From contig CALVSH010000021.1 in NCBI GenBank assembly GCA_944358945.1, positions 1 to 44,239 on the forward strand: 44,239 nt of DNA. Reading direction: 5' to 3'. This DNA is from an uncultured Bacilli bacterium (GTDB lineage: Bacteria; Bacillota_I; Bacilli_A; RF39; UBA660). Of the stretch, positions 2,516 to 22,304 are shown piece after piece. Both the position numbers and the translations under genes were made by a program. Under the pieces are notes generated by a model. The model worked only from the letters and a program-made list of their open reading frames with translations, did not search any database and had not been told where the DNA came from. Within the stretch, counting starts at the first letter, position 1. Each line of letters begins with the position of its first letter.

Positions 2516-2555
2516 GAACATTATAAAATACTTTTATTTGTGTTGCAATCGAACA
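2516..2555 (-). promoter_or_regulatory. dinB sigma-A promoter with TGTTCGATTG motif over the -35 and a second GTTC after the -10
   Basis: TGTTCGA-TTGCAA-N17-TATAAT-GTTC. Confidence 0.7.
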
Positions 2556-2583
2556 TTGAAAGATAAGTGTAGTCTTTTGGTTT

Positions 2584-2614
2584 ACATATTATTTTTTAAA
2601 ATTTGGGCATACTA
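2584..2614 (+). promoter_or_regulatory. Candidate sigF/sigG-type promoter of the XRE regulator
   Basis: ACATA-N16-GGGCATACTA; the -10 fits GGnnAnAHTR and CATACTA. Confidence 0.4.
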
Positions 2615-2629
2615 AATCCAGGTGATACT

Positions 2630-2929
2630 ATGGATAAAGAAGAAAGAAAAGAATATGAAAAGTTTTTTAAGAAAGTAGTTATTGAACATATCAGAGAAGC
2701 TAGAAAAGAAAAGGGCTGGACGCAGGCACAACTAGCAGAAGCGGTTTGTGTTTCTCATGAGTTTATACGTAATTTAGAATCTCAAAAGGGAGATGATCAT
2801 TTTTCAGCTTTTACAGTATGGTTAATTGCTCGAGCATTAGATGTTGATTTAAATGATTTATTAGATTTTGATATGGAGGCATTTCGTTCTGTTATAGAAA
2901 AAGCAATGCAAAAGAAGCATCGTCCTTAA
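2630..2929 (+). CDS. XRE-family helix-turn-helix regulator, divergent from dinB
   Basis: IREARKEKGWTQAQLAEAVCVSHEFIRNLE HTH; start moved to ATG 2630 after AGGTGA RBS. Confidence 0.85.
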   Translation: MDKEERKEYEKFFKKVVIEHIREARKEKGWTQAQLAEAVCVSHEFIRNLESQKGDDHFSAFTVWLIARALDVDLNDLLDFDMEAFRSVIEKAMQKKHRP

Positions 2930-2937
2930 GCATTGCT

Positions 2938-4440
2938 TTATTTTTCTATTAAACTTTCTCCTGTCATTTCACTTGGTTTTTCTAGACTCATTAAATCTAG
3001 TATTGTTGGAGCAATATCTCCTAATTTACCAGGATGAAGTTTTAATCCATTCTCGGTAATGATAAAAGGTACTGGATTGGTGGTGTGTGAGGTTACAACG
3101 TTATTATTGTCATCTAACATTTCTTCACAGTTACCGTGATCAGCTGTGACAATTAGTATTCCTCCTAATTCCATTACTTTATCATAAATTTTTCCTAAAT
3201 TTTTATCTACTGTTTCTACTGCTTCAATAGCAGCTTCTAATACACCTGTATGCCCTACCATATCCCCATTAGCAAAGTTAAGTATTACTAGGTCTTGTTC
3301 TGGTAATTCTTTTAATAATGCTTCTGTTACTTCATCGGCACTCATACTTGGTTTTAAATCATAGGTTGCGACCTTTGGCGATGGTATTAATAATTTCTTT
3401 TCCTTCTTATAATCTACTTCTTTTCCTCCATCAAAGAAGAAGGTAACATGAGCATATTTTTCAGTTTCTGCAATTCTTAGTTGTGATAAATCTTGCTTTT
3501 CAATGTATTCTCCTAAAATATTTGTTAATACTGGATCTGAAAAAGCATGTGGTGCTTTTACCGTATTTACTACAGGCATCATGGTAACTGTTTTTACATT
3601 AGTAAATTTTACAGTTTCCATGTCTACTTCAGTAGGATTCGTAATTGCTGTAAACAATTCACGTAATCTATCTTTTCTAAAGTTAAAGGCAATTACTCCA
3701 TCATTTTCTTCTAGTGAACCATTTTCTGTAAATTTTGCTGGTAAAAAGAATTCATCTGTTATATTTTCTTGATAACTTTTTTCTATATATTCTCTTGGAG
3801 AGTTTTGTACTTCTCCTAAATTATTAACAATAACATCATAGGCCTTCTTTAATCTGTCATAGTTATTGTCACGGTCCATAGCATAATATCTTCCACTAAT
3901 AGATGCGATTGTTCCGATTCCTAATTCACTTATTTTTTCTTCTACCTTTTCTATATAGGTGTAGGCACTCCTTGGCGGAACATCTCGACCATCGGTAAAT
4001 AGATGAAGATAAACATTATTTATTTCTTCTTCTTTACACATATCTAGTAAAGCTAGTAAATGATTGATATGTGAATGAACTCCTCCATCGCTTATAAGTC
4101 CCATTAAGTGTAGTTTAGAACCATTTTCTTTTACATGATGCATTACTTTTTTTAGTTCTTCATTATCAAAAAACTCCTGATCTTCGATTGCTTTATTAAT
4201 TAGTTCTAATGGTTGGTAAACAATTCTTCCAGCACCTATGTTCATGTGACCTACTTCACTGTTTCCCATTTGTCCTTCAGGAAGTCCTACTAATCTTCCT
4301 GATGCAGTTAATGTTGTGTGAGGATATGTTTCCCATAGTTTGGTAAAGATTGGATTGTTTGCTAGTTTTACAGCATTCCCATGAGTCTCTTCCCTTAATC
4401 CATATCCATCTAATATTGCTAATACAATTGGTTTTTTCAT
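2938..4440 (-). CDS. gpmI: 2,3-bisphosphoglycerate-independent phosphoglycerate mutase
   Basis: LAILDGYG, GQMGNSEVGH, AETEKYAHVT, DMVGHTG, TADHGN motifs. Confidence 0.98.
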   Translation of the reverse strand: MKKPIVLAILDGYGLREETHGNAVKLANNPIFTKLWETYPHTTLTASGRLVGLPEGQMGNSEVGHMNIGAGRIVYQPLELINKAIEDQEFFDNEELKKVMHHVKENGSKLHLMGLISDGGVHSHINHLLALLDMCKEEEINNVYLHLFTDGRDVPPRSAYTYIEKVEEKISELGIGTIASISGRYYAMDRDNNYDRLKKAYDVIVNNLGEVQNSPREYIEKSYQENITDEFFLPAKFTENGSLEENDGVIAFNFRKDRLRELFTAITNPTEVDMETVKFTNVKTVTMMPVVNTVKAPHAFSDPVLTNILGEYIEKQDLSQLRIAETEKYAHVTFFFDGGKEVDYKKEKKLLIPSPKVATYDLKPSMSADEVTEALLKELPEQDLVILNFANGDMVGHTGVLEAAIEAVETVDKNLGKIYDKVMELGGILIVTADHGNCEEMLDDNNNVVTSHTTNPVPFIITENGLKLHPGKLGDIAPTILDLMSLEKPSEMTGESLIEK

Positions 4441-4452
4441 AATTTGTCCTCC

Positions 4453-5730
4453 TTACATCCTGTTATCGTTTAAACAAAACATTGCATAGATAGGAATATA
4501 TCTTACTCCTTTTTTTGTTGCAAAATTGTTTTCTGTTACTCGATATGCTTCTGTTACTGTAAATTTTTTCATAAATACAGAAAGTGATTTTGCCTTTGAA
4601 TCAGCTTTTGTAATTAATTCTATCGGTATTATTTTACCCATTCTGTTTTGAATTACAAAATTTACCTCTGCTTTTCCTTCTGATTGATAGTAATAAAGAG
4701 CATATCCGGCTTCCGCTAATGCTTTAGCGATACTATTTTCATATAATATCTCTTTTACTTTTTCATCACTAAGTAATTGTTTTGAGGTTACATGAAGCAT
4801 TGAAAATAATAAGCCGTCATCAGGTAAGTATAATTTAAAACTGTCTTTTTGTCTACAACTACTTAGTGGAGATTTTATTGTTTTTACTTTATAACTTCTG
4901 TAAACAATCTGATTATTTACTAAAAAGTTAATGGTACTTTCATATTCTTTAGCTCTTCTTCCTGTTCCAATTACTCCATATTGAAATTTCTTGTTGTCTT
5001 TTTTTAATTGTTCTGGTAGAGATTCTATTACCTCTAATCCTCTTGGAATATCAATTAGATTTTTGCATGAGAATAGTTCTTTTTCATAAACTTCTAATAT
5101 CTTTTGTTTAATAATATCTATTTCTTGTTCACTTTTTCCTTGTAGGTTTGCCGATACTACTTCTGGTAGACCTCCGGTCATTAAGTATTCTTGAAATAAT
5201 TCTAAAGCAAGTTTATGAAAAGGACACGTCTTATGTTTTGTAAAGGATTCTCTAATTAATTCAGATAGAGCCTTCTCATTATGAGACCATAAGAATTCTT
5301 CGAAGTCCATGGCATTCATACTTTTAAACTGTAGTTCTTCTCCTTTAAATACATTTAGGTTTTCTCTACGAGAAGTAATTGCAATAATATGATATTTACT
5401 ATGTTCACTACCAAATAATTTTAAACCTTTTACTATTTCTACACTATCTACATTATCAAAGATTATTAAAGTATCTCCTGGTAGAATAGTTTCTCCTGAT
5501 AATAAAGATAAATTTAGTATTATACGTTCTGTTGATTTTTCTTTTTTGAATAATTCTTCTAATGGTTTATTATTACTGGTATTGAAATAAATTGTATTTT
5601 TGTAATTTGTTTTACCAAATTTTAAGGCAGAATAACTTTTTCCTACTTGTTTAGGGCCATATAAAATTAGTGGTTTTCTAATGATGTCGTTTTGCCATTT
5701 TTCTAGGAATTTATCTATTTTTCGTTCCAT
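4453..5730 (-). CDS. AAA_14/DUF4143-type ATP-binding protein with degenerate catalytic motifs
   Basis: GPKQVGKS Walker A, MDFEEFL, YLMTGGLPE, FKLYLPDDG; Walker B reads FDNVD; C-terminal EVNFV..PIEL. Confidence 0.85.
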   Translation of the reverse strand: MERKIDKFLEKWQNDIIRKPLILYGPKQVGKSYSALKFGKTNYKNTIYFNTSNNKPLEELFKKEKSTERIILNLSLLSGETILPGDTLIIFDNVDSVEIVKGLKLFGSEHSKYHIIAITSRRENLNVFKGEELQFKSMNAMDFEEFLWSHNEKALSELIRESFTKHKTCPFHKLALELFQEYLMTGGLPEVVSANLQGKSEQEIDIIKQKILEVYEKELFSCKNLIDIPRGLEVIESLPEQLKKDNKKFQYGVIGTGRRAKEYESTINFLVNNQIVYRSYKVKTIKSPLSSCRQKDSFKLYLPDDGLLFSMLHVTSKQLLSDEKVKEILYENSIAKALAEAGYALYYYQSEGKAEVNFVIQNRMGKIIPIELITKADSKAKSLSVFMKKFTVTEAYRVTENNFATKKGVRYIPIYAMFCLNDNRM

Positions 5731-5800
5731 TATCTGTACCCTCCTAACACAATTTCTAAATTAAGTATACTTATTTTTGTAATGAAAGTCAACGATTCCG

Positions 5801-5829
5801 AAAAAAAAGGCAGACCTTTTTGTCTGTCT
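5801..5829 (-). terminator. Terminator after spo0A
   Basis: AGACAGAC-N6-GTCTGCCT plus T run on the minus strand. Confidence 0.7.
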
Positions 5830-5838
5830 AAGTTCGTA

Positions 5839-6612
5839 TTAGTTAGCTAATGGTTTAGAAAATTCTAGTCTTAATTTGTCAGCAACCGTTACAATAAATT
5901 CCGAGTTTGTTGGTTTCGCTTTGTCAATATCTACACTGTGTCCAAATATTTCTTCCATTAGTTGCCAGTTACCTCTATTCCAACTTACTTCTATGGCATG
6001 ACGTATTGCTCTTTCTACACGAGATACTGTTGTATTAAATTTCTTTGCAACTTCTGGATATAGTTCCTTAGTAATTCCGCCTACCATCTCGGGATTTTCA
6101 TATACTAAAGTAATACTTTCTCTAATATATTGATAGCCTTTTATGTGTGAGGGTACTCCTAGTTCGTGTAAGGTCTTGGTGATTGCAATTTGTAAATTAT
6201 TGTGATACACATCTACTTCTTTTCCACCAAACTTTACACCTTCGGCTACTTCTAAAATTCTTTTTTCTAAATCTTCTAATTCAAAAGGTTTTAGAATAAA
6301 GTAACTGACACCTAATTCTGATACTTTACGTATCATATCTTGCGTATTATATGAAGTTAGAACAATTACCTTTTTATCAATTGCTTTCTTCTTCATATAT
6401 TCCAGTACTGCAACTCCGTCTTTATTAGGCATGATCAAGTCTAATAGAACTATGTCATACTCATCCTGTTTCTTTTCAATCAAGCGAATTCCCTCTGTAC
6501 CATCATAAGCTTCTAGCGAAATTGTGACATCGGGACGCTCTGTGAAGTATTCCTTAATCATCTCTACTAAACTCTTATTATCATCTACTACTAATACTCT
6601 TGTCTTTTTCAT
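5839..6612 (-). CDS. spo0A: Sporulation master regulator Spo0A
   Basis: Receiver domain (VDD, LLDLIMP, LKPF) plus Spo0A_C signature [44 protein letters not shown]. Confidence 0.98.
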
Positions 6613-6675
6613 TTATTCTCCTCTCAGTACTGCACGTATTTTCATTATATACTGCTTTTCGAAAAAATGATAGAG

Positions 6676-6707
6676 AAAAAAAAGACAAGTTTTGTCGAAA
6701 CTGTCTA
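6676..6707 (-). terminator. tpiA terminator hairpin containing a perfect Spo0A box (TGTCGAA, 6693-6699) upstream of spo0A
   Basis: AGAC-AGTTT...AAACT-T-GTCT stem plus T run; TGTCGAA read on the + strand. Confidence 0.6.
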
Positions 6708-6713
6708 ATTTGT

Positions 6714-7415
6714 CTAATTTTTTAATTTTTTTAAGAAAATTTTTAATTGTTCTGGTTTTAAACTTAGTCCACCAACTAAATATCCATCAAGATTTGGAAT
6801 ACTTTTTAATTCGTCTATATTTTTTTCATTAGCACTTCCTCCATACAATACCTTGTTATGTGGATATTTTGTTTTTATAAATTCTATTATTTCACTTATT
6901 TCTTCTGTTGTTGGTATGATACCTGTTCCAATTGACCAAATTGGTTCGTAGGCGATTACTATTTTTTGTTGTTCAACTGGTGTTAATTCTTGTAAGACTT
7001 CTTTTAAATCTTTTTCTATTACTTGTTTTTCTTGGTGAGAATTTCTTTCTTGTTCTGTTTCACCAATACATAGTATAGGTATTATATTGCAGGATAGCAA
7101 CCTTTTTACTTTGTCTTTTATTTGTTCGTTAGTCTCTTGTTGATATAGTCTTCTTTCAGAATGTCCTACTAAGCAATATAAGACATCTAGTGATTTTAGT
7201 TGGGAAGCAGATACTTCTCCTGTATAAGCACCACATTCTTTATCACTGACATTTTGTGCACCAAGTTTCATATTTGTTAAGTTTACTTTATCTAAATATA
7301 TATTACTAGGACAAAGTATTAAATCAATATCTGTTTTTATTTCTTGTAATTGTTGTTGGTAGATTGTGAACTCTTCTTTATTTAAATTACATTTATTGTT
7401 TAATGCTACTATCAT
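6714..7415 (-). CDS. tpiA: Triosephosphate isomerase
   Basis: GAQN, GAYTGE, GHSERR, AYEPIWSIGTG, YGGS, LVGG motifs. Confidence 0.97.
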   Translation of the reverse strand: MIVALNNKCNLNKEEFTIYQQQLQEIKTDIDLILCPSNIYLDKVNLTNMKLGAQNVSDKECGAYTGEVSASQLKSLDVLYCLVGHSERRLYQQETNEQIKDKVKRLLSCNIIPILCIGETEQERNSHQEKQVIEKDLKEVLQELTPVEQQKIVIAYEPIWSIGTGIIPTTEEISEIIEFIKTKYPHNKVLYGGSANEKNIDELKSIPNLDGYLVGGLSLKPEQLKIFLKKLKN

Positions 7416-7433
7416 TTTATCAATTCCCCTCTT

Positions 7434-7925
7434 TTAAATTTGATGAGAAAAAGATTTCTGGGTAGGTTTTGATTTTAAGTATATTTGTAAACTACCTTCT
7501 TTTCCTAAATTATCAAATCCTTTGTTTTTAAAATAATTAGATGATATACGACTACCTTCATCTTGTAGAATCATAATTTCTTCCATACCCAGGTTAAAAG
7601 CATATTGTTCTGCTGCTTGTAATAGTTTTTCTTGAAGTTTGGCAGTAGATGTATTATCTATATTTATTCGACAGACTTTTCGATCTTTTTCTCCTAGTAA
7701 ATGAACTGCTGTCATAATCTTTTCCTCTTGTTGTAGAAATAGTGTTTTTACTATTTCAGGTTTTTCTTGTTCTAATTGTTTATAATCTACTTCACTCATT
7801 AAGCTCATGGCCTGTTTTAGATATTCTGATGTTGCATGCGTTAAGTTATTTTCTTTTTCATATTGTTCTAGTAATTTTATATGTTCTTCTTTATAGGGAT
7901 TGGCAACTTCTATTATTTGTTTCAT
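7434..7925 (-). CDS. Hypothetical protein, GNAT-like fold (degenerate)
   Basis: LLQAAEQYAFNLGMEEIMI...NYFKNKGF resembles the GNAT C-terminal half; starts 1 nt after the pgk stop. Confidence 0.6.
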   Translation of the reverse strand: MKQIIEVANPYKEEHIKLLEQYEKENNLTHATSEYLKQAMSLMSEVDYKQLEQEKPEIVKTLFLQQEEKIMTAVHLLGEKDRKVCRINIDNTSTAKLQEKLLQAAEQYAFNLGMEEIMILQDEGSRISSNYFKNKGFDNLGKEGSLQIYLKSKPTQKSFSHQI

Positions 7926-7926
7926 G

Positions 7927-9099
7927 TTATTTTATTGCTTCCAACCCTGGTAGTTTTTTACCTTCTAAGTATTCTAAGGTTGCTCCTCCACCAGTTGAGG
8001 CGTGATATACTTTTTCTTTATAACCAGATTGAGAAGCTGCAGCAACGATATCTCCTCCACCTAAAATTATTTTAATGTTATTATCTACTACGAATTTTAG
8101 AATATGGTCTGTTCCTTGTTTATACTTTTCAAATTCGTAGACACCAAGTGGGCCATTCCAAACAGCAATACTTGCCTCTTTTAGATAGTTTTCAAATAAT
8201 TTTTCTGTACTTGGTCCAATATCTAATCCCATTTCGTTATATTCTAAATCACTAATATCTTTTACTTTATAATCTTCTTTTTCACTATACTCTGTTGTAA
8301 CAGCAACATCTACTGGTAAGACAATTTTGTCTGGATGTTCTTTTATTACTTTTTGACAGAATTCTATATTTTCTTGGTCTAATAGAGAATTACCTATTTC
8401 ATATCCTTCTGCTTTTAAAAAAGTAAAAGCCATTCCTCCACCAATTAATATTTTGTCTGCTTTTTTTACTAAGTTTTCAATGACACCAATTTTGTCTGCT
8501 ACCTTAGCTCCTCCTAATACTACTACAAAAGGATGTTTTGGATTATCTAGTTCTTGTAGCGCTGTCAATTCTTTTTCGATTAAGAAACCTACGCAAGAGT
8601 TTAAGTGAGAAGCAATTCCTACATTAGAAGCGTGAGCTCTATGAATTGTTCCGAAGGCATCATTTACAAATACATCTCCTAAAGAGGCCCAGTATGCACC
8701 TAGTTCTGGATCGTTTTTACTTTCTTTTTTGCCTTCTAAATCTTCATATCTAGTATTTTGTACTAAGATAATATCCTTTTCTTTCATGTTGTTGATAGCG
8801 TTTTCTAATTCTTCTCCACGGGTCTTATCTATGAATGTTACTGGTTGTCCAAGTAATTCTTCTAATCTCTTGGCAACTGGCGCTAGATTGTTTTTTTCTA
8901 GGTCACTTGCTTCTTTTACTCTACCTAGATGGGAAAATAAAATTACCTTGGCATTTTTTTCTAGACAATATTTTATCGTTGGTAATGCTGCGGTAATTCT
9001 GGTGTCGTCGGCAATTTTCCCTTCTTTCATTGGTACATTAAAGTCGCAACGAATTAATACTTTTTTATTTTCTATATTTATATCTTTTAGTGTTTTCAT
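7927..9099 (-). CDS. pgk: Phosphoglycerate kinase
   Basis: RCDFNVP, SHLGR, NDAFGTIHRAHAS, GGAKVADK, WNGPLG, STGGGA motifs. Confidence 0.99.
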   Translation of the reverse strand: MKTLKDINIENKKVLIRCDFNVPMKEGKIADDTRITAALPTIKYCLEKNAKVILFSHLGRVKEASDLEKNNLAPVAKRLEELLGQPVTFIDKTRGEELENAINNMKEKDIILVQNTRYEDLEGKKESKNDPELGAYWASLGDVFVNDAFGTIHRAHASNVGIASHLNSCVGFLIEKELTALQELDNPKHPFVVVLGGAKVADKIGVIENLVKKADKILIGGGMAFTFLKAEGYEIGNSLLDQENIEFCQKVIKEHPDKIVLPVDVAVTTEYSEKEDYKVKDISDLEYNEMGLDIGPSTEKLFENYLKEASIAVWNGPLGVYEFEKYKQGTDHILKFVVDNNIKIILGGGDIVAAASQSGYKEKVYHASTGGGATLEYLEGKKLPGLEAIK

Positions 9100-9167
9100 G
9101 TCTATCCTCCTATCTCTTTCAGTATAACATTTTTCAGAATGAAAAAAAAGAAGTGGTTCTCCTTTTT

Positions 9168-10172
9168 TTATTGTTCCATTAAGTATTTAGCAGTTCTAAC
9201 CATTTGAGCAGTGTAGCTCATTTCATTATCATACCATGATACTACTCTAGCTAGTTGCTTTCCGTCTACTTCTAATATACTAGTAGATAATCCGTCTACT
9301 AATGATCCACAGTGTCTACCGATTACGTCACTAGATACAATAGGGTCATCTGTATATTGAAGAGTTTCGTTTTGTGCTCCTTTTAATACGCCATTGATTT
9401 CTTCTACCGTCGTATTCTTTTTAAATTCAAGTACTAAATCAATTACTGATCCAGTAGAAACAGGAACACGCATTGCAGCTCCATCTAGTTTTCCATCTAG
9501 GTTTGGACATACTTTGCCGATAGCTGCTGCTGCTCCAGTTGATGCTGGTACAATATTAGCAGCACAAGCTCTTCCACGACGAGCTTTAATTCCTTTTTTG
9601 TGTGGAACATCTAGTGTAGCTTGGTCATTAGTGTAAGCATGAACTGTTGTCATATATCCTTTTTCTATACCAAATGCTTTATCTAGTACATCTACTACAG
9701 GTGCTAGACAGTTTGTTGTACAGCTAGCGGCTGAAATAATTTTTTCTTCTCCTGTTAATATCATATGATTTACATTATAAACAATTGTCTTGATATCTCC
9801 TTTAGCTGGAGCTGAAATAATCACTTTTTTAGCTCCGGCATTGATATGAGCCATTGCCTTTTCTTCTGATGTAAATCTACCAGTACATTCAAGTACTACA
9901 TCAATATTTAAATCTTTCCATGGAAGATTGTTAGGATCTGTTTCAGCATATACTTTAATGCTTCTATCTCCTACTACAATTGTATCTTCCTCATTATGAA
10001 TTTCGTCTATTCTATAATTTCTATGATTTGTGTCATATTTTAACAAATATGCTAATGTCTCAGCATCTGTTAAGTCATTAATAGCAACAATTTCAAAATC
10101 TGGATCTTCTTCCATTAAACGGAAAGCAAGTCTTCCGATTCTTCCAAATCCATTGATTGCGACTCTTACCAT
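9168..10172 (-). CDS. gap: Glyceraldehyde-3-phosphate dehydrogenase (type I)
   Basis: INGFGRIGR, ASCTTNCLAP, WYDNE motifs. Confidence 0.99.
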   Translation of the reverse strand: MVRVAINGFGRIGRLAFRLMEEDPDFEIVAINDLTDAETLAYLLKYDTNHRNYRIDEIHNEEDTIVVGDRSIKVYAETDPNNLPWKDLNIDVVLECTGRFTSEEKAMAHINAGAKKVIISAPAKGDIKTIVYNVNHMILTGEEKIISAASCTTNCLAPVVDVLDKAFGIEKGYMTTVHAYTNDQATLDVPHKKGIKARRGRACAANIVPASTGAAAAIGKVCPNLDGKLDGAAMRVPVSTGSVIDLVLEFKKNTTVEEINGVLKGAQNETLQYTDDPIVSSDVIGRHCGSLVDGLSTSILEVDGKQLARVVSWYDNEMSYTAQMVRTAKYLMEQ

Positions 10173-10194
10173 AAATCATTCCTCCTTTATTTTC

Positions 10195-10258
10195 ATTATA
10201 TAGTGTTCTTTTTTTTGTTTCAATATATTCAAAAAAATTTTGACACTTACTTGTCGAA
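10195..10258 (-). promoter_or_regulatory. gap promoter with upstream inverted pair of Spo0A boxes
   Basis: TTGAAA-N17-TATAAT; TTTGACA (10239-10245) N6 TGTCGAA (10252-10258). Confidence 0.6.
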
Positions 10259-10285
10259 AAAAATATCCACAGATTTTGTGGATAA
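10257..10285 (-). terminator. Terminator after the nucleoside kinase gene whose stem is two inverted DnaA boxes
   Basis: TTATCCACA-AAATC-TGTGGATAT-T run on the minus strand. Confidence 0.6.
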
Positions 10286-12029: not shown

Positions 12030-12045
12030 TGGATAGGTGATGATT

Positions 12046-12671: not shown

Positions 12672-13622
12672 TCATGCCTTTTCATTTTCTTTTTCTAGGT
12701 TTTTGAATTTTGTTGCGAGTTCTTTTATCTTTCTGAATCTATGGTTTAAACCTGACTTACTAATTGATTTTCCCGTTTCTAATGAGATGATTTCGCTTAA
12801 TTCTTTTAAGGAGGTTTCTGGATATTTTTTTCTATATTCTAAAGCTTCTAAAGTTTTGTCATCTAATAGACTAGTTCCTAAGTTTTCTTCTATTATCTTT
12901 ATATCATCTAGTTGAGCCGTGGCGGTTGCGATTACTTTGTCCATATTCGCTTGTTCACAGTTATTTAGTCTGTTAGCTTGATTTTTTTTGTTGCGATATA
13001 TTCTTTGATTTTCAAAGTATAATACGGCATTATTGGCTTTGATAATTTTTAGATAATCACTAATTTTATCAGCTTCTTTAATATATAACATATACCCTTT
13101 GTCTCTTGTTAGTATTTTTACATTTAAATCAAATAGGTTTAGTAGTTTTTGAACAAAGACTGCTTCTTCTGCTTGTTCAATTAGTAATTCCATATGATAC
13201 CTTGATGTTTTAGGGTCGTTAATACTTCCTGATGATAGAAAAACTCCTTTTAAATAGGCTCTTATTTCTTCGTTAGCTCCTACAATATATTCTGGTGGTC
13301 GGCCTAGATAGTTTCCCTCTTTGTCTTGATAACCTATATCTTCTAAGATAAAGTCTTTTTTTTCTTCAATTGTTAAGACTAGTAAGTCTTTTTTACTGAA
13401 GTTTAGACTGTCTTTTACTTCTTTTTTTACTTTTGTTTCATATAGTGTTTCGATTTGTTTTTCAATTCTTTCACAAATATACGGATTTTCTGTTGTTAGT
13501 TGAAAACCATGAGGTGTGTTGTGCCCATTATTTCTGATATAACCTGATAATTCAGCAATTGTTTCTGATTTAGAACTAATGTTTTTTGATATTTCTTCTT
13601 TGATTGTCGTGGTGTATGACAT
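12672..13622 (-). CDS. whiA: DNA-binding protein WhiA
   Basis: GSINDP..YHME, NRLNNCEQANMDK, SKSGLNHRFRKI motifs; downstream of yvcK. Confidence 0.95.
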   Translation of the reverse strand: MSYTTTIKEEISKNISSKSETIAELSGYIRNNGHNTPHGFQLTTENPYICERIEKQIETLYETKVKKEVKDSLNFSKKDLLVLTIEEKKDFILEDIGYQDKEGNYLGRPPEYIVGANEEIRAYLKGVFLSSGSINDPKTSRYHMELLIEQAEEAVFVQKLLNLFDLNVKILTRDKGYMLYIKEADKISDYLKIIKANNAVLYFENQRIYRNKKNQANRLNNCEQANMDKVIATATAQLDDIKIIEENLGTSLLDDKTLEALEYRKKYPETSLKELSEIISLETGKSISKSGLNHRFRKIKELATKFKNLEKENEKA

Positions 13623-13623
13623 A

Positions 13624-14577
13624 TTATTTCCTCATTAAATAATTGAATATTAATCCACTTAATTTTAGACTATTGTGTCTTAATATATTATCTTCTATAA
13701 CAATTAAATCATCTTCTATTAGTTCTGTTTTTAAACTTTCTATAGCTGCATAATCTATTTTTACTGGTGATTTTTGTTCATCCGTTTCATATTTTTCGGC
13801 TATCTTTTTATCTATTTTTGTATTACTAGCGATTACTACATCAATTTGTCGTTTATCTAGATATTGATTTAGTAGTTTTATGTGATCACTTACTGTGAAA
13901 TTGTCTGTTTCTCCTGGTTGTGTTACTACATTACATAAATACATAATTGGTGCTTTTGTTCTATTTAGAGCATCTTGTACTTCGCTACAAATTATATTAG
14001 GTAAAATACTTGTAAATAGACTTCCCATGCTAAAGATAACTAGATCAGCATCTAGTATGGCATTGATTACTTCTGGTAATACTTTTGGTTCTTCCTTGTA
14101 GAATATTTTTTGGAATTTTTTGTTTGCATGAGTAATTTGTTCTTCTCCTTCTACTACATCTCCATCTTTACCTAGTCCCATTAAGGTTAGGGATGAGTCT
14201 TCAGAAATTGGTAATACTGTTTGCTTTACATCAAATAACTTGCTTAAATAAGCAATCGATTCTTTTAGGGAACCAGTGATATCTAACATAGATGTTAAAA
14301 TTAGATTTCCCATGGCATGACCATTTAGATCACTAGATGTATTGAAACGATATTCCATCATTTCTTTGATTGGTTTATCAATATTTGATAATGATGTGAT
14401 AACCTTTCTAATATCTCCTACAGCTGGAGTATTAAATTCTTTTCTTAATTTTCCCGTTGAACGACCATTGTCTGATACTGTAATTACTGCCGTAATATCA
14501 ATTGGAAAATCTTTTAAACCTCTTAATAGATAAGAAATTCCGGTTCCTCCACCAAATACAACAACTTTTTTATTCAT
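13624..14577 (-). CDS. yvcK: YvcK/GlmR (UPF0052) gluconeogenesis and UDP-GlcNAc factor
   Basis: GGGTG, VSDNGRSTG, GDIR, GHAMGNL, GSLFTSILPN, TQPGET, RHNS motifs. Confidence 0.93.
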   Translation of the reverse strand: MNKKVVVFGGGTGISYLLRGLKDFPIDITAVITVSDNGRSTGKLRKEFNTPAVGDIRKVITSLSNIDKPIKEMMEYRFNTSSDLNGHAMGNLILTSMLDITGSLKESIAYLSKLFDVKQTVLPISEDSSLTLMGLGKDGDVVEGEEQITHANKKFQKIFYKEEPKVLPEVINAILDADLVIFSMGSLFTSILPNIICSEVQDALNRTKAPIMYLCNVVTQPGETDNFTVSDHIKLLNQYLDKRQIDVVIASNTKIDKKIAEKYETDEQKSPVKIDYAAIESLKTELIEDDLIVIEDNILRHNSLKLSGLIFNYLMRK

Positions 14578-15370
14578 TTTTACCTCCTAATTTATGTACA
14601 ACATTCTTATTTTTCAAACTCTTTATTATTATTAGAGTAAGACCTGATATGACGAAGATGATGGATACTAGTTGTGCTATCTTGATAGGACCTAACATTA
14701 GAGAGTCTGTTCTCATAGCTTCTATCATAAAACGAATAATTCCATACCAAATTAAATAGAAGCCCGTTAGGTATCCTGGTTTTAATTTTTTATACTTACG
14801 TAATAATAACATTATAATAAAGCCAATTAAACACCAAGTTGATTCATAGAAAAAAGTGGGATGGTGATATGCACCTGAAATGTACATTCCCTCTATGATA
14901 AAGTTGGGAAGAAATAGAGATGTTAGATTCTCTTTTGTAGTTATAGGTCCGTAGGCTTCTTGGTTGAAGAAATTTCCCCAGCGACCGATTGCTTGTGCTA
15001 CTATTAGTCCAACTACTACCATATCTAATATTTTGTATATATCCACTTTGTATTTTTTACAGTAATATATGATAAATAGAAGGCCAGCAATGATTCCTCC
15101 ATGAATTGCTAGGCCTCCATTCCAGATTTTTATTATTTCTATAGGATTTGATAAGTAATAAGATAAATTAAATATTATATAGTAAAGTCTTGCACCTAGT
15201 ATTCCTATTAATATAGTATAAAAAGTTAAGTTTATCAAGAACTCTTCGTCTATCTTATTTTTTTTTGCTTCTTTGTATATCAAAATGCAGGCTACTAGTA
15301 TTCCTGTAAATATACAGATAGAATACCAGCGTATTTGAAGTGGTCCTAATTCTAGAGCTATTTTATCCAT
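14570..15370 (-). CDS. lgt: Prolipoprotein diacylglyceryl transferase
   Basis: IRWY, GARLYY, GGLAIHGG, QAIGRWGNFFNQEAYG, HPTFFYES motifs. Confidence 0.97.
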   Translation of the reverse strand: MDKIALELGPLQIRWYSICIFTGILVACILIYKEAKKNKIDEEFLINLTFYTILIGILGARLYYIIFNLSYYLSNPIEIIKIWNGGLAIHGGIIAGLLFIIYYCKKYKVDIYKILDMVVVGLIVAQAIGRWGNFFNQEAYGPITTKENLTSLFLPNFIIEGMYISGAYHHPTFFYESTWCLIGFIIMLLLRKYKKLKPGYLTGFYLIWYGIIRFMIEAMRTDSLMLGPIKIAQLVSIIFVISGLTLIIIKSLKNKNVVHKLGGKNE

Positions 15371-15380
15371 AGGCTACCTC

Positions 15381-18200
15381 TTATCCTTGTAATATTTTCT
15401 TTAAGAATTGACCGGTATAGGATTCTTTTACTTCGGCTACTTCCTCTGGTGTTCCAGTTGCGACAATTTGTCCACCTTCATCTCCACCCTCTGGTCCTAA
15501 GTCAATAATGTGATCAGCCACTTTGATAACATCTAAGTTGTGTTCAATCACTACTACGGTATCTTTATTATCTACTATTTTTTGTAAAATTGCAAGTAAT
15601 CGCTTGATATCATGAGTGTGAAGTCCAGTCGTTGGTTCATCTAGAACAAATAGAGTTTTTCCTGTTGCTTTCTTTTGTAGTTCTTTCGCTAATTTTACAC
15701 GTTCCGCTTCTCCTCCTGATAGAGTTGGAGCTGGTTGACCTAATTTAATATATCCTAATCCAACATCTTCTATTACTTGAAGTTTCTTTTTAATTCTTGG
15801 CACATTTGAGAAAAATTCTAAAGCTTCTGATACTCGCATATCCAACACTTCGGCGATATTTTTCCCCTTATATTTTATGTTTAGAGTTTCTCTATTATAC
15901 CTTGTTCCATGACATACTTCGCATGGTACATAAACATCTGGTAGGAAGTGCATTTCAATCTTTTTGACACCGTCTCCACGACAAGCTTCACAACGTCCTC
16001 CTTTTACATTAAATGAGAAACGATTCTTTTCAAAACCATACATTTTAGCTTCTTTTGTGGTAGTGAAGAGGGTACGTATGTCATCGAATACTCCGGTGTA
16101 TGTTGCGGGATTTGATCTTGGTGTTCTTCCAATTGGATTTTGAGATATCGCAACAATTTTATCAATGTTATTTAAACCTAAAATCTTTTTATGATTTCCT
16201 GGTTTTTCTTTAGAATGATATAGATTTTGTGATACTGCTTTACATAGAATTTCATTTATTAAGCTACTCTTTCCACTTCCTGATACTCCTGTTATACAGG
16301 TAAATGTTCCAAGTGGAATGTCTACGTCGATATTTTTTAGATTATGTTCACTAGCTCCCTTTATTTTTAAGAATTTTTTATTGCCTTTTCTTCTTGTTTT
16401 CGGAATTTCTATACATTTCTTACCACTTAAGTATTGTCCAGTTAAACTGTTCTCATTTTTCATTACTTCCTCTGGTGTTCCTGCTGCGACGATTTGTCCT
16501 CCGTGGTCTCCAGCACCTGGACCAATGTCTACTAGATAATCACAAGCTAACATTGTATCTGTATCATGTTCTACAACTACTAGGGTATTACCTAAATCTC
16601 TCATTTCTAACATAGATTTTATTAATTTTTCATTATCCCTTTGATGTAGTCCAATACTAGGTTCATCTAATACATATAATACCCCTGTTAAATGAGAACC
16701 AATCTGGGTTGCTAGACGGATACGTTGTGCTTCTCCTCCCGATAGGGTTCCCGCACTTCTACTTAGTGTTAAATATTCTAATCCAACATTAGCTAGGAAA
16801 TGAAGACGGTCTTGAACTTCTTTAATCACTAGCTTAGCAATTTCTTTTTTCTCTTCTGATAATTTTAGATTATCAAAGAAAGGAATTAATTCTTTAATAC
16901 TCATCTGGGTTACTTCGTAGATATTCTTTCCATTTAACTTTACAGATAACACATCATCATTTAAACGAGCTCCATGACAAGTTTCACAAGTATGTTCAAC
17001 CATATAATTTTCTAACCATTCTCTAATCCAAGTAGAACTTGTTTCCATGTATCTTCTTTCTAAGTTATTGATAATTCCTTCATAATAATCTCTAGAATTA
17101 TATTTGTTTCCACTCTTAGAAGAATACTGGAAGTGAATTATTTCATCTGAACCATAAAGAATTACATTTTGTTGTTTTTTTGTTAGAGATTTCCAAGGTT
17201 TTGTCATATCAATTTTATAGTGTTTACAAAGACATTCCAATTTTTGATAATCTAATCCTTCTTGGTCATCTGTTAGAGTCTTTATACAACCTGTCGCAAT
17301 AGATTTTGTTTTATCTGGAATGATTAAGTCTTCATCAATTTTTGACTTTATTCCTAATCCTTTACAGTCTGGGCATGCTCCATAAGGGGCATTAAAACTA
17401 AAGATTCTTGGTTCTAACTCTGGTAGGGAAAACTCACAGTAAGGACACGCAAATGATTCTGATAAAACTATTTCTTTTCTATTTTCTCCTAGGATATCAA
17501 TTACTACTTTACCTTCTGATAATTTGGTTGCGGCTTCGATTGCTTCAAATAGTCTAGATCTTGATCCTTCTTTGATTATTAACCTGTCAATTACTACATC
17601 AATTTTATGTTTTTTATTTTTATCTAAGGTGATATCTTCTGATAAGTCTTGCATTTCTTCATCGACACGAACTCGGATATATCCTTCTTTTCTTAAATGC
17701 TCTAGTAAATCTTTTTGTGTTCCTTTTTCCCCATGAACTACAGGAGACATAATAATAATCTTAGTACCTTCTGGATACTCTAATACTTTATTCGTCATTT
17801 CTTCCACACTTTGAGAAGATATTGGAATATGATGATTTGGACAATATGGAACTCCTACTCTGGCAAATATTAGTCTTAAGTAATCATAAATTTCCGTTAC
17901 TGTACCTACTGTTGATCTAGGGTTATTATTAGTAGTTTTTTGATCAATACTAATTGCAGGAGATAGTCCTTCAATACTGTCTACATCTGGTTTTTCACTA
18001 CCACCTAAAAATTGTCTGGCATAAGCAGATAAACTTTCTACATAGCGTCTTTGCCCTTCTGCATAAATAGTATCAAAAGCTAAAGAACTTTTTCCACTTC
18101 CTGATACTCCTGTCATAACAACTAATTTATTCTTTGGTATTTCTATATTAACATTCTTTAAGTTATTTTCTCTTGCACCTTTTACAATTATTTTATCCAT
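15381..18200 (-). CDS. uvrA: Excinuclease ABC subunit A
   Basis: Two ABC modules (GVSGSGKSS, LSGGE), zinc-finger CxxC pairs; ATG 18200 after AGGTG RBS. Confidence 0.99.
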   Translation of the reverse strand: MDKIIVKGARENNLKNVNIEIPKNKLVVMTGVSGSGKSSLAFDTIYAEGQRRYVESLSAYARQFLGGSEKPDVDSIEGLSPAISIDQKTTNNNPRSTVGTVTEIYDYLRLIFARVGVPYCPNHHIPISSQSVEEMTNKVLEYPEGTKIIIMSPVVHGEKGTQKDLLEHLRKEGYIRVRVDEEMQDLSEDITLDKNKKHKIDVVIDRLIIKEGSRSRLFEAIEAATKLSEGKVVIDILGENRKEIVLSESFACPYCEFSLPELEPRIFSFNAPYGACPDCKGLGIKSKIDEDLIIPDKTKSIATGCIKTLTDDQEGLDYQKLECLCKHYKIDMTKPWKSLTKKQQNVILYGSDEIIHFQYSSKSGNKYNSRDYYEGIINNLERRYMETSSTWIREWLENYMVEHTCETCHGARLNDDVLSVKLNGKNIYEVTQMSIKELIPFFDNLKLSEEKKEIAKLVIKEVQDRLHFLANVGLEYLTLSRSAGTLSGGEAQRIRLATQIGSHLTGVLYVLDEPSIGLHQRDNEKLIKSMLEMRDLGNTLVVVEHDTDTMLACDYLVDIGPGAGDHGGQIVAAGTPEEVMKNENSLTGQYLSGKKCIEIPKTRRKGNKKFLKIKGASEHNLKNIDVDIPLGTFTCITGVSGSGKSSLINEILCKAVSQNLYHSKEKPGNHKKILGLNNIDKIVAISQNPIGRTPRSNPATYTGVFDDIRTLFTTTKEAKMYGFEKNRFSFNVKGGRCEACRGDGVKKIEMHFLPDVYVPCEVCHGTRYNRETLNIKYKGKNIAEVLDMRVSEALEFFSNVPRIKKKLQVIEDVGLGYIKLGQPAPTLSGGEAERVKLAKELQKKATGKTLFVLDEPTTGLHTHDIKRLLAILQKIVDNKDTVVVIEHNLDVIKVADHIIDLGPEGGDEGGQIVATGTPEEVAEVKESYTGQFLKKILQG

Positions 18201-18242
18201 ATACTTCACCTGCCATATTTCTTTTTGTAAAATAACATCTAT

Positions 18243-18278
18243 ATTTTAATCACATTAGCTTTTTTCGTCAATCGAACA
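18243..18278 (-). promoter_or_regulatory. uvrA sigma-A promoter with TGTTCGATTG motif over the -35
   Basis: TGTTCGA-TTGACG-N17-TAAAAT. Confidence 0.7.
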
Positions 18279-18282
18279 AATT

Positions 18283-18307
18283 AAAATCAGAAGAAATTCT
18301 TCCGATT
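18283..18307 (-). terminator. Terminator of the uvrB - radical SAM - kinase-like unit
   Basis: AATCGGAAGA-ATT-TCTTCTGATT followed by T's on the minus strand. Confidence 0.6.
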
Positions 18308-18310
18308 ATT

Positions 18311-19387
18311 TTATTTTAATTGTTTTTCTATTCTTTTTTTAAGTGCCTTGGCGTTTTGTAGGACTTGATCTTGAATTTGATTACTTAACATATCTGGAGT
18401 AATGAAATGTTGGTCTAATACAGCTTCTAGAGCTTTGGCTTTTCTTTCATCATTTTCTTTCCATCTTGCTTGACCTATGTAAAAATTGGATGTATTAAAT
18501 GGAACTAGATAGTTGTAGTCTTCCATTTGGAATGGTGTAGTAGAAAAATCAGTAATAAAACGTTTTAGGTTTTCTAGGAATTCTATTGCTGTGGTTGGAT
18601 ATAAGGTCATAATTTTGTCTATATTTTTTCCTTCTACCTCTAATTTTTCTATATATAACATTTTTAAAATATCATCTGATGTGTGTTTTCTTGCTTCTCC
18701 ACTTATGCCTTCTAGTGATTCCTGGGTAGTGACAAATAGATTTTTATTTTTCTCTGGTTTATCTAGGTACATGAACATAGTAGAAAATTCATGATCTATC
18801 ATAGGGGCAATTTCTAGTCCTTCTTCTCCTTGATAGAATAAAACATTTTCATAATGATAGTTTTGATCTTGTCTTAAAACAGAACATAATATTTGTTTCA
18901 CAACGGATTCTGCAAGACCGGGATGTTGTTTCATAAATTCTGAGTCTAATATTTTAGTATAATCATAAAACACTTCACAGTAGTTGATATATGTTGAAAT
19001 ATCTGGTAATGTGTTTTTGTTTGCTTGACATAATTGATATAAGTTTATTAAGTTTTTCTTTTCTGTTCCTAATTTTTCTACTACTGTTCCATGATGATAT
19101 TTATTAGGATATTCTTCTTCTATATTTTGACATGTCGCTAAATGATATATAGGAGTTGTTGGATCAAAGTAGTTGTGAAATATAGTTGACCAAAACACTT
19201 CACTATACGCAAAAAAGGGAGTTGATAATGGCTTGGTTTTAGAAAGCGGCTTAAAAACCATTTCTTTTCCATTGTCCAAAAATACAGGGAAATGTTTTTC
19301 ACTTTTTACTGTTCCTTGAGCTTCTGATGTTAAATTCCCTATTCTTTGGTGATAATCATAATTATAAACCGTCCAATCAAAATTCAC
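18311..19387 (-). CDS. HipA/CtkA-like kinase-fold protein
   Basis: MVFK, AYSEVFWS, QDQNYHYENV, IAPMIDHE match the HipA-like K / SE / DxHxxN / APxxD layout; GTG start after GAGGAG RBS. Confidence 0.6.
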   Translation of the reverse strand: MNFDWTVYNYDYHQRIGNLTSEAQGTVKSEKHFPVFLDNGKEMVFKPLSKTKPLSTPFFAYSEVFWSTIFHNYFDPTTPIYHLATCQNIEEEYPNKYHHGTVVEKLGTEKKNLINLYQLCQANKNTLPDISTYINYCEVFYDYTKILDSEFMKQHPGLAESVVKQILCSVLRQDQNYHYENVLFYQGEEGLEIAPMIDHEFSTMFMYLDKPEKNKNLFVTTQESLEGISGEARKHTSDDILKMLYIEKLEVEGKNIDKIMTLYPTTAIEFLENLKRFITDFSTTPFQMEDYNYLVPFNTSNFYIGQARWKENDERKAKALEAVLDQHFITPDMLSNQIQDQVLQNAKALKKRIEKQLK

Positions 19388-19399
19388 ATTTATTCTCCT

Positions 19400-20236
19400 C
19401 TACTGGTATTTTCGTTCTTTAAAAGTACAAGACTGGCATAACTTTTCACTTGGTTTTCTATCTTGAAAAGATTTTTTTAGTCTTTGATATCTTTCTTTAT
19501 TTTGAATTTGTTCTATTGTTTCTTTGTAAATATTTCCTAAATTGATGATACCGTTGCAGTCAAGGCAACATGGTACTACAGTGCCATCTACTAATATAGC
19601 GACATGGGTCTTTAAAGCATAACAATATCCACAACTATTGTGATTTGTGATGCTAGGCCATAAAAATTCATTATCTTTATCCACATATATTGTGGAAGAA
19701 ATTTTTACGTTGTTTTCTGTTTTTAGTTTTTCCACTGTTTTTTTGGATAAATGGTAATGTTTTTTTAACTTTTCCACCGTTTTTGTGGATTGTTCATTCA
19801 GTTTACCATCTTTTAAAGTCCAAATTCGATAGATAATCACAGTATTAGTGGATAACTTTTCTACATTTTTGAATATTTCTTCTTCATAATGGGGATTATT
19901 TTGTTCACAATGAAGAGAGAAATTTATTTTATGTAACGAAGAACAGTCTTTTAGTTTGTCTACTAATTTAGGAAATAGAGTGCCATTGGTTGTTAGATTT
20001 ACTTGGAGTTGATATTTCTCGGCTAGTTTTAAGAAGTTGATTATTTTAGGATGAAGTAAAGGCTCTCCTTTTACGTGAAGATATATTACTTTTGTTACCT
20101 GGGATACTTCTTTTAGAATGTGTTCAAATTCTTGTTCTGTCATAAATCTTTTTTCTTTTGTTACTTCAGAACAGAATGAGCAAGCTAAGTTACAACAATT
20201 TGTTATTTCTATATATACTTTTTTGTACTTATGCAT
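19400..20236 (-). CDS. Radical SAM protein with SPASM/twitch domain
   Basis: CNLACSFC motif, GEPLLHP, TTNG, C-terminal C..VVPCC...LGNI...CQSC. Confidence 0.9.
   Translation of the reverse strand: MHKYKKVYIEITNCCNLACSFCSEVTKEKRFMTEQEFEHILKEVSQVTKVIYLHVKGEPLLHPKIINFLKLAEKYQLQVNLTTNGTLFPKLVDKLKDCSSLHKINFSLHCEQNNPHYEEEIFKNVEKLSTNTVIIYRIWTLKDGKLNEQSTKTVEKLKKHYHLSKKTVEKLKTENNVKISSTIYVDKDNEFLWPSITNHNSCGYCYALKTHVAILVDGTVVPCCLDCNGIINLGNIYKETIEQIQNKERYQRLKKSFQDRKPSEKLCQSCTFKERKYQ
19625..19865. repeat. Intragenic DnaA-box cluster (about 9 boxes)
   Basis: TTATCCACA 19677; ATATCCACA 19625; TGTGGAAGA 19691; TTTTCCACT 19728; TTTGGATAA 19742; TTTTCCACC 19770; TGTGGATTG 19784; AGTGGATAA 19847; TTTTCTACA 19857. 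Confidence 0.65.
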
Positions 20237-20237
20237 A

Positions 20238-22190
20238 TTAAGACCCTGATTTCATTTCAAATAAAATATCACGTAGTTCCATAGCGCGTTCGAAGTCTAA
20301 TGCCTTGGCAGCTTCTCTCATCTCTTGTTCGATAGCGTCTACTGTCTTAGCAAACTCTTTCTTAGTCATCTTCTTAGGTTTTTCAGTAGCCTTTTCATCC
20401 ACATTACTGATAACTTCTCTGATTTCTTTTTGAATTGTCTGTGGAGTAATTCCATGTTTCTTATTATATTCTTGTTGGATTTTTCTACGTCTTGCAGTCT
20501 CTTCAATAGTTTCTTTCATAGAATCCGTAATCTTGTCTCCATACATAATAACATGACCATTGGCATTTCTAGCACAACGTCCGACTGTTTGAATTAGACT
20601 TCGACTACTACGTAGAAAACCTTCTTTATCAGCATCTAATATGGCAATAAGAGATACTTCTGGAATATCAATTCCTTCACGTAATAGGTTAATTCCTACT
20701 ACTACATCATATTTTCCAACACGTAAATCATGAATAATTTGAAGTCGTTCTAGGGTTTTTATCTCAGAATGAAGATACGCTACTTTGATATCTAATTCTT
20801 TTAGATAGTTTGTTAATTCTTCTGACATACGAATAGTTAGTGTTGTTACTAGGACTCTTTCATTTTTTTCTATTCTGTCTTTGATTTCTCCTACTAAATC
20901 ATCAATTTGTCCTTCTGTTTTTCTTACTTCAATCGTTGGATCTAATAGTCCAGTTGGACGAATAATTTGTTCTACAAATTTTCCACCAGTATGTTCTAAC
21001 TCTAGGTCTCCTGGTGTTGCGGATACGTAGATAGCTTGATTTATTTTTTTCTCAAACTCATCATATTTTAAAGGTCTGTTATCAAGGGCACTAGGAAGAC
21101 GGAATCCATACTCTACAAGATTCATTTTTCTAGCTCTATCTCCATTATACATTCCTCTAACCTGTGGTAGAGTAACATGAGATTCATCCACTACTAATAA
21201 ATAATCCTTGGGAAAGAAATCCATTAGTGTCGTTGGTGTTTCCCCTTTTTTTCTTCCGGCCATAGGAGCAGAATAGTTTTCAATTCCAGAACAGAAACCA
21301 GTCTCTTCTAACATTTCAATATCATAATTGGTTCTTTGTTCTAGACGTTCTGCTGCTAAAAGTTTGTTGTTATCTTTTAATTCTTTTAGACGGTCTTTTA
21401 ACTCTTCTTTAATACGAACGATGGCGGCTTTTAATTTATCATCACTTACTACGAAGTGGCTGGCTGGAAAAATGCTTACGTTCTTCTTATTAGAGATGAT
21501 TGCTCCTGTTAATGTATCAATTTCACTAATTCTATCTATTTCGTTACCAAAGAACTCTACTCGATATCCTGTAGTATTTTGGTAAGCAGGGATGATTTCT
21601 ACTATATCTCCTCTAACTCTAAAAGTACCACGCTTAAAGTCTAGGTCGTTTCGCTCATACATCATTTCAATTAGTTTTGTTAGTATTTCGTTTCGTTCTA
21701 CTTCTTGTCCTATTGATAAAGTTAACATCTTGTTGCGGTATTCTTCTACTTCTCCAATACCATAAATACAAGAAACACTGGCTACTACAATAACGTCTCT
21801 TGTTGATAGAAGGCTACTGGTTGCGGCATGACGAAGTTCATCAATCTCATCATTAATAGATGAGTCCTTTTCAATATATGTATCCGTTGATGGAACATAT
21901 GCTTCTGGCTGATAATAATCATAGTAAGAGACAAAATATTCAACACGGTTTTCAGGAAATAACTCTTTCAGTTCTGAATAAAGTTGACCGGCTAAGGTCT
22001 TGTTGTGGGCTAAAACTAAAGTAGGTTTATTTACTTCTTTTATGACGTTTGCAATGGTAAATGTCTTTCCTGTTCCTGTTGCCCCTAAAAGTACTTGTTC
22101 TTTTTTTCCTTCTTTGATACCTTCTACTAATTCTTTAATTGCTTCCGGTTGATCTCCAGATGGTTTGAATTTTGATACTAATTTGAACAT
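20238..22190 (-). CDS. uvrB: Excinuclease ABC subunit B
   Basis: [32 protein letters not shown]-terminal UVR domain; ATG 22190 after GGGTGA RBS. Confidence 0.99.
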
Positions 22191-22263
22191 ATATATCACC
22201 CTTTTACAGAATTTTTTGTTTGTGTAATATTAGATTACTAGATGTTCTAGGCATTAATTTCAT

Positions 22264-22304
22264 GAACTATTCTATCATTTTTTCCCGTTATAAACAATAG
22301 AACA
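22264..22304 (-). promoter_or_regulatory. uvrB sigma-A promoter with TGTTCTATTG motif over the -35 and GTTC after the -10
   Basis: TGTTCTA-TTGTTT-N17-TAGAAT-AGTTC, with extended TG. Confidence 0.65.

Follow-up and report, generated by a model that had tools for sequence, protein, structure and literature searches.

The promoters of three DNA repair genes, dinB, uvrA and uvrB, in a 44,239-nucleotide (nt) stretch from an uncultured Bacilli bacterium of the RF39 lineage (contig C21 of the assembly designated G000; the entire stretch is referred to here as the window) each carry a LexA half-site one base 5' of the -35 box of a TTGNNN-N17-TAnAAT promoter. This fused element is a genuine feature, conserved within one bacterial family and specific to it, and we consider it probable, judging from sequence comparison, that it represents a LexA operator that has shrunk to a single perfect half-site held in a fixed place against the -35, where it would hinder RNA polymerase. 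The host assembly comprises 1.30 Mb in 102 contigs (69% complete, ~30% G+C), and the relatives scanned were 121 genomes of the same family.

The fused half-site at three repair promoters

On the minus strand the promoters read TGTTCGA-TTGCAA-N17-TATAAT (dinB, motif 2546-2555), TGTTCGA-TTGACG-N17-TAAAAT (uvrA, 18269-18278) and TGTTCTA-TTGTTT-N17-TAGAAT (uvrB, 22295-22304). An earlier sequence-only reading of the window had parsed them in this way, and the sequence bore out its readings and coordinates as well as its claim that the motif has the same offset from the -35 in all three; across the family, this layout recurs upstream of 10 or more different genes. The same reading had noted that the GAAC partner is missing at N4 (CTTT at dinB, TTTA at uvrA and TTCT at uvrB stand there instead) and that the other promoters it had parsed lack the motif, and both observations were borne out. 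The features concerned are as follows (window coordinates):

2546..2555, minus strand: TGTTCGATTG, the perfect LexA half-site TGTTCG plus one base plus the TTG of the dinB -35 (from the sequence); the same 10-mer stands at 30 of 80 relatives' dinB loci
2520..2548, minus strand: dinB promoter TTGCAA-N17-TATAAT (consensus promoter scan)
1273..2502, minus strand: dinB, Y-family DNA polymerase IV (Pfam IMS, IMS_HHH, IMS_C)
2516..2519, minus strand: GTTC directly after the dinB -10, not conserved and taken as chance (from the sequence; 0 of 20 orthologues)
2603..2929, plus strand: XRE-family helix-turn-helix (HTH) gene, divergent from dinB, probable ATG at 2630 (Pfam HTH_3)
18269..18278, minus strand: TGTTCGATTG fused to the uvrA -35 (from the sequence), present in 18 of the 21 genomes compared within the genus
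18243..18271, minus strand: uvrA promoter TTGACG-N17-TAAAAT (consensus promoter scan)
18263-18267: CGAAA within the uvrA promoter, remnant of the canonical box CGAACAAATGTTT, which 10-11 congeners retain
18285..18307, minus strand: terminator-like hairpin isolating the uvrA promoter from the upstream open reading frame (ORF)
15381..18209, minus strand: uvrA; the listed ORF begins at GTG, probable ATG at 18199 (Pfam UvrA domains)
22295..22304, minus strand: TGTTCTATTG fused to the uvrB -35, with the AGAACA variant of the half-site; same layout at uvrB of genomes G128 and G144
22269..22297, minus strand: uvrB promoter TTGTTT-N17-TAGAAT, with a weak -35
22334..22367, minus strand: terminator-like hairpin upstream of the uvrB promoter
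20238..22199, minus strand: uvrB, probable ATG at 22190 (Pfam UvrB domains)
19509..19518, plus strand: fourth copy of the 10-mer, inside a radical-SAM ORF, taken as chance and outside the system

TGTTCKATTG matches the window four times vs. 0.32 times expected, and none of 100 shuffles reached four. The consensus scan called the dinB and uvrA promoters and not that of uvrB, because the uvrB -35 (TTGTTT) matches the consensus at only three of six positions. A radical-SAM/SPASM gene (19400-20236) and a 358-amino-acid ORF without a Pfam hit (18311-19387) separate uvrB from uvrA, and uvrA therefore has its own terminator-insulated promoter, which differs from the usual uvrBA operon.

Genome-wide, TGTTCNATTG occurs in 16 copies, six of them in promoter-like non-coding DNA vs. 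~1.5 expected from the 9% non-coding share: the three window sites and those at C5:28199, C36:1886 and C15:445 on other contigs of the host. Raw counts of ACANNTGTTCG gave no discrimination (8 in the host genome vs. 8 in the control). The scan of the genome and its relatives that the sequence-only reading had proposed returned a real, fixed-position, non-palindromic element in DNA-damage promoters, and not a chance match.

Positional rule and operator turnover in the family

We scanned the 121 family genomes with the promoter pattern TGTTCG-N{0,12}-TTGNNN-N16-18-TATAAT and counted the gaps between TGTTCG and the -35 by hand. A gap of 1 accounted for 31 of the 70 matches listed (gap base A in 18, C in 9, T in 3 and G in 1), and gaps of 8-9 for 25 of the 70; the latter have the recA-type arrangement seen at host recA, and we infer orthology for the others in this class. 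The ten remaining gap values shared 14 matches altogether. A reversed-pattern control gave 42 matches spread over all 13 gaps, and when the half-site was turned round, so that CGAACA precedes the -35, a gap of 1 was found in 0 of 25 matches in the family genomes. The excess at gap 1, together with 0/25 in the reversed orientation, therefore indicates that the layout is position- and orientation-specific. Outside the family, hits came from 7 of 266 genomes, as single hits only and at about the control level; a within-family sample yielded 4 of 34 genomes in addition to the host genome, with three hits each in G024 and the host. The genes behind the relatives' fused sites are ruvA (3), dinB (4), uvrB (2), a Y-polymerase paralogue, dnaE, nrdD and an AAA/DUF4143 gene, and at seven further loci a toxin-like peptide follows.

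A second half-site was absent at any spacing from the 28 sites inspected with their flanks, and no upstream conservation appeared in 30 dinB-type and 28 mixed sites, in which the conserved columns were those of the 10-mer and the -10 only. Partner half-sites at the upstream N4 position, inside the -35 or spacer, as an everted repeat or as a direct repeat with TTGTTT were also considered, and none was consistent. The nearest CGAAC is 5 nt from TGTTCG at uvrA, but 11 nt from it at both dinB and the C5 promoter. The spacing to the canonical box thus varies, whereas that to the -35 does not, and the half-site presumably works together with the promoter and not with another LexA site.

Orthologous promoters record how the two kinds of operator replace each other. 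Among 80 dinB loci chosen by protein similarity, without use of the motif, 37 have a canonical box only, 10 have both elements, 20 the fused half-site only and 13 neither. The canonical dinB box, CGAAAAAATGTTC, abuts the -10; the ten loci with both elements keep them in fixed register (TGTTCG at 1-6, box at 18-30, -10 at 31), and the 20 fused-only loci are those of the closest relatives. For uvrA we compared 21 genomes of the genus and 9 loci outside it: TGTTCGATTG is present in 18 of the 21 (both elements in 10-11, fused only in 7, canonical only in 2, neither in 1) and at 0 of the 9 loci outside the genus. The uvrA box CGAACAAATGTTT starts inside the -35, and its right half is lost in seven genomes including the host. 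At ruvA, the host has a canonical box in the spacer and the congener G014 has the fused form. At uvrB, the motif was found in the host only among 30 relatives, the cases in G128 and G144 having been found separately by the pattern scan; most congeners have a uvrB promoter of the form TTTCTTGTTTTAT-N12-TGTTAAAAT, with no recognisable LexA half-site, and in these uvrB may be outside SOS control.

As read from these alignments, the fused half-site is interchanged with canonical boxes at orthologous dinB, uvrA and ruvA promoters. The layout is probably a lineage-specific operator variant, which would have arisen beside canonical boxes and replaced them at dinB and uvrA of the host. The dinB and uvrA series thereby offer an unusually clear record of operator turnover, from the canonical box through both elements to the half-site alone, which can be used to study how the site of a dimeric repressor may shrink without loss of control. 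In the literature searched, which did not cover subscription papers, we found no description of LexA half-sites fused to a -35 and no paper on the SOS response of RF39-like Bacilli.

LexA and other candidate readers of the element

A Pfam profile search of the host genome located lexA, which encodes a DNA-binding and an S24 self-cleavage domain, at C55:3866-4483 (PF01726, 78.4 bits). A comparison of 30 genomes showed conservation of the Ala-Gly cleavage site, the Ser/Lys pair and the helix SSPATIHFHL, the best solved relative of the host protein is LexA 3k2z, and LexA was found in 114 of the 121 family genomes, including 10 of 10 genomes with A-variant fused promoters. From 57 lexA-promoter sites of 29 relatives we obtained the consensus CGAACAATTGTTCG and built a symmetric matrix. 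The strong half of this family consensus is exactly TGTTCG, and the fused sites include its flanking T; T likewise precedes 5 of 5 intergenic copies of GTTCNATTG in the host genome, though it was not required by the search. Two boxes upstream of lexA are common to 30 family genomes: the first, TTGACA-CGAACAATTGTAT, belongs to the promoter of a small membrane-protein gene that diverges from lexA, and the second, (C/A)(G/A)AAC-N4-GTTTGACA, overlaps the -35 of lexA itself. Ordinary CGAACA-N2-TGTWY boxes stand at host lexA, recA, ruvA and recX, and the symmetric matrix finds in the host lexA (twice), recA, rarA/xerD, the second site of the C5 promoter, ruvA, recX and two IS605-OrfB/TnpB genes. In the dinB, uvrA and uvrB promoters of the window the matrix scan found no canonical box, and at none of these sites can both halves of the inverted repeat CGAAC-N4-GTTCG be recognised. 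The matrix and consensus results therefore indicate that the organism has an ordinary LexA regulon, that TGTTCG is the perfect half-site of its operator and that the window sites are half-sites only. The sequence-only reading had spoken of a non-canonical DNA-damage regulon motif and had asked whether lexA exists; the gene is present with an unremarkable recognition helix, and with ordinary boxes at lexA, recA, ruvA, recX and rarA the description does not extend to the entire regulon.

The operator of Gram-positive LexA (DinR), the Cheo box, is CGAAC-N4-GTTCG. The fused sites share with it an identical half-site (flanking bases included), the same gene set, a LexA with its cleavage residues and canonical boxes elsewhere in the genome; they differ from it in that the second half is missing at 28 of 28 inspected sites, in their fixed position and orientation relative to the -35, and in being missed by standard matrices. 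Other lineages have rearranged LexA operators made of GTTC words during evolution, as in the alphaproteobacterial direct repeat GTTC-N7-GTTC and the Verrucomicrobia motif TGTTC-N4-GAACA, and the fused sites resemble these; however, both motifs keep two half-sites at fixed spacing, whereas the fused sites have no second one. The Gram-positive LexA operator is also cited in the form GAAC-N4-GTTC (PMC4234289).

We reasoned that LexA is the favoured reader because the half-site match is exact, the genes are those of the SOS response, the element interchanges with canonical boxes and an intact LexA is present, and because the offset is fixed and other candidate binders fit poorly. In this mechanism a LexA dimer would be anchored through one DNA-binding domain on TGTTCG(A), at ~-43 to -37, the place where the proximal UP element contacts the C-terminal domain of the RNA polymerase alpha subunit (alpha-CTD) beside sigma region 4, and its second domain would rest non-specifically on A/T-rich DNA further upstream. 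Bound LexA would hinder RNA polymerase at the -35 (sigma region 4, alpha-CTD); upon DNA damage, RecA-stimulated self-cleavage of LexA would release dinB, uvrA and uvrB, and selection would keep the fused half-site immediately 5' of the -35 of SOS promoters. We infer both the binding mode and the repression by LexA at the fused sites. If this holds, regulon predictions made with palindromic matrices would be blind to part of the SOS network, and here such matrices miss dinB, uvrA and uvrB altogether. The organisms are abundant uncultured gut Bacilli, and induction of an error-prone polymerase in them bears on mutagenesis in the gut.

A precedent is provided by dinBox1b of the Bacillus thuringiensis phage GIL01, in which the LexA of B. 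thuringiensis binds a single recognisable half-site specifically, though weakly, and for which the authors propose one specifically and one non-specifically bound LexA monomer (PMC4551915). The parallel is with a Firmicute LexA on a lone half-site; for the fused sites such binding is predicted. By that same account dinBox1b lies downstream of the transcription start, adjoins a strong canonical box, and is weak, minor in vivo and dependent on the phage protein gp7 (PMC4551915). Unlike dinBox1b, the fused half-site is found by itself at core SOS genes of the chromosome, 5' of the -35, and its conservation extends beyond a single genus. A fused site beside a canonical box is not seen in the window promoters; it does occur in the C5 promoter, at 10 of 80 dinB loci and at 10-11 of 21 uvrA loci.

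Several observations weigh against LexA as the reader. The symmetric matrix scores the dinB, uvrA and uvrB sites at 3.7, -3.9 and 0.8 bits (genome ranks 960, 14839 and 3094), and by the usual palindromic model LexA should not bind the three window sites. In B. thuringiensis, the one Firmicute in which it has been tested, half-site binding is described as weak, unstable, minor in vivo and requiring a phage co-factor (PMC4551915). So strict a position and orientation usually mark factors in contact with RNA polymerase; a simple repressor does not require either. By hand count, TTGACA is the -35 of only 1 of the 31 gap-1 promoters vs. 11 of the 25 promoters with gaps of 8-9. Such poor hexamers resemble those of activator-dependent promoters, although a good part of the 31 consists of toxin-type promoters related to one another. 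None of the LexA residues separates motif-positive from motif-negative genomes. Finally, in genome G142 (90% complete, 180 contigs) no lexA was found, yet three TGTTCGCTTG promoters are present, one of them before a UvrD/PcrA-like gene (named from a reading of the sequence). Its recA box is degenerate, its uvrA promoter retains a LexA-like ACAC-TTTT-GTTTG, and its ruvA and dinB upstream regions are both cut by contig ends; G142 reflects either a gap in the assembly or a genuine exception to LexA as the binder. Five genomes without lexA contained 0 intergenic TGTTCKATTG promoters, their 4 hits all being antisense within ORFs, but a sample of this size has little statistical power.

A rival candidate is a separate regulator, not LexA, that would read TGTTCGA beside the -35 as a monomer or asymmetric dimer, touch sigma region 4 or the alpha-CTD and activate or repress upon damage. 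Such a protein would explain why the element keeps its place and direction relative to the -35 and not relative to the canonical LexA box, whose distance differs between uvrA on the one hand and dinB and C5 on the other, why the -35 hexamers are weak, why the palindromic model fails and how G142 can carry fused promoters; nevertheless, its motif would have to copy a full LexA half-site by coincidence, an activator would need a damage sensor of its own, and no candidate protein emerged from checks of XRE, WYL and Peptidase_M78 proteins. We hold this reading to be unlikely. It would resemble class II activators such as MarA and SoxS or the mycobacterial PafBC/RecA-NDp system, in which PafBC binds a RecA-independent promoter motif. 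In these systems, as here, an asymmetric element at fixed distance and orientation stands beside or replaces the -35 of DNA-damage genes; however, their motifs are unrelated in sequence, the sole WYL protein of the host is short, sits beside an Abi-like gene and has a distribution that does not follow the motif, and there is no sign of activation at the fused sites. No cognate activator gene co-occurred with the motif among WYL proteins (121 genomes), the XRE neighbour or Peptidase_M78. The XRE protein, named as a possible binder in the sequence-only reading, is disfavoured: it has its own palindrome further upstream and adjoins dinB at 23 of the 37 canonical-only loci, which lack the motif. 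A WYL regulator is disfavoured as well, with homologues in 30 of 121 genomes and in 2 of the 10 A-variant motif-positive ones, and a Peptidase_M78 (IrrE-like) gene was not found in the 69%-complete host genome. The idea of a damage-responsive activator, which that reading had also raised, is kept as a rival, but asks for more assumptions than does LexA acting at a perfect half-site of its own. Its boldest version, an undescribed damage-responsive factor that would read TGTTCGA as a monomer, dock on RNA polymerase at the -35 and have taken core repair genes over from LexA as a Firmicute counterpart of PafBC/RecA-NDp, or in a milder form LexA contacting sigma region 4 or the alpha-CTD in place of a second half-site, strikes us as improbable.

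LexA might instead bind the half-site only together with a host co-repressor, the counterpart of GIL01 gp7, which would create a second regulon tier with its own timing. The phage protein gp7 greatly stabilises LexA on the half-site without itself contacting DNA (PMC4551915), and confinement of the layout to one family would fit a lineage-specific helper. On the other hand, nothing in the sequence requires a helper and no helper gene turned up, though no search for one or for a gp7-like protein was made, and we give this version little weight. That the element is intrinsic to the promoter, with RNA polymerase itself reading it as a -35 extended in the upstream direction, or a functionless remnant, would suit its constant contact with the -35 and its mere ~7 specific bases; it is very improbable given that the element is restricted to SOS-type genes, equals the LexA half-site, is kept at uvrA in 18 of 21 congeners while the flanks diverge, and is lacking from the other window promoters. 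Least credible of all is binding of LexA or a variant to direct GTTC half-sites that bracket the promoter before the -35 and after the -10, as the sequence-only reading had suggested. The second GTTC that it reported after the -10 is indeed present at dinB and uvrB; however, it is absent at uvrA and unconserved, with 0 of 20 fused-only dinB orthologues having one within 12 nt, and the two GTTC sites are 35-36 nt apart, presumably too far for one dimer.

Additional loci and neighbouring genes

The pairing of the XRE gene with dinB is widespread among the relatives (52 of 80 loci). A conserved TGTAAAC-N7/8-TTTACA-like palindrome at 2570-2592 of the window overlaps the -35 of the divergent XRE gene and is probably that gene's own operator. 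The short HTH-WYL regulator of the host (C99:6542-9099 locus, 1063-1698) lies directly downstream of an AIPR-like abortive-infection gene, as named from its sequence, and looks like a defence-island regulator.

Of the three fused copies outside the window, that at C5:28199 precedes a truncated Y-family polymerase paralogue followed by mutS, and its promoter has both the fused motif and a canonical box; that at C15:445 precedes a MurJ-like flippase, has no good -10 and is doubtful. At C36:1886 the motif stands before an ORF for a 30-amino-acid hydrophobic, toxin-like peptide. Within this locus (1886-2200) the fused-motif promoter drives the ORF (1987-2079), which has a long leader whose 5' end complements the 3' end immediately ahead of a T-run; beyond this lies a conserved promoter-like block in convergent orientation, and the arrangement is multi-copy in relatives. 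Rfam gave no match for the RNA downstream of C36-type promoters, which holds the 30-amino-acid ORF, and the locus looks like an SOS-controlled type I toxin-antitoxin locus.

The gene divergent from lexA is a 66-amino-acid membrane-protein ORF without a Pfam hit (C55:3400-4600 locus, 163-363, minus strand), in whose promoter TTGACA is directly followed by a canonical LexA box, an arrangement kept in 30 family genomes. By analogy, we take this ORF to occupy the position of the SOS cell-division inhibitors YneA/SosA. Five paralogous promoters of the form TTGACA-N3-TGTTCG-N7/8-TATAAT (C22:2266, C78:12992, C88:1148, C95:22820 and C96:13912, with a similar one at C10:7614) carry a lone half-site within the spacer; of the five, four lie ahead of genes for proteins with no Pfam hit and the other ahead of one for a beta-lactamase-fold protein. 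Canonical LexA boxes also lie in promoter spacers before two IS605 OrfB/TnpB N-termini (HTH_OrfB_IS605; C74:1-330 and C100 near 211), which suggests that these mobile-element genes may be under SOS control.

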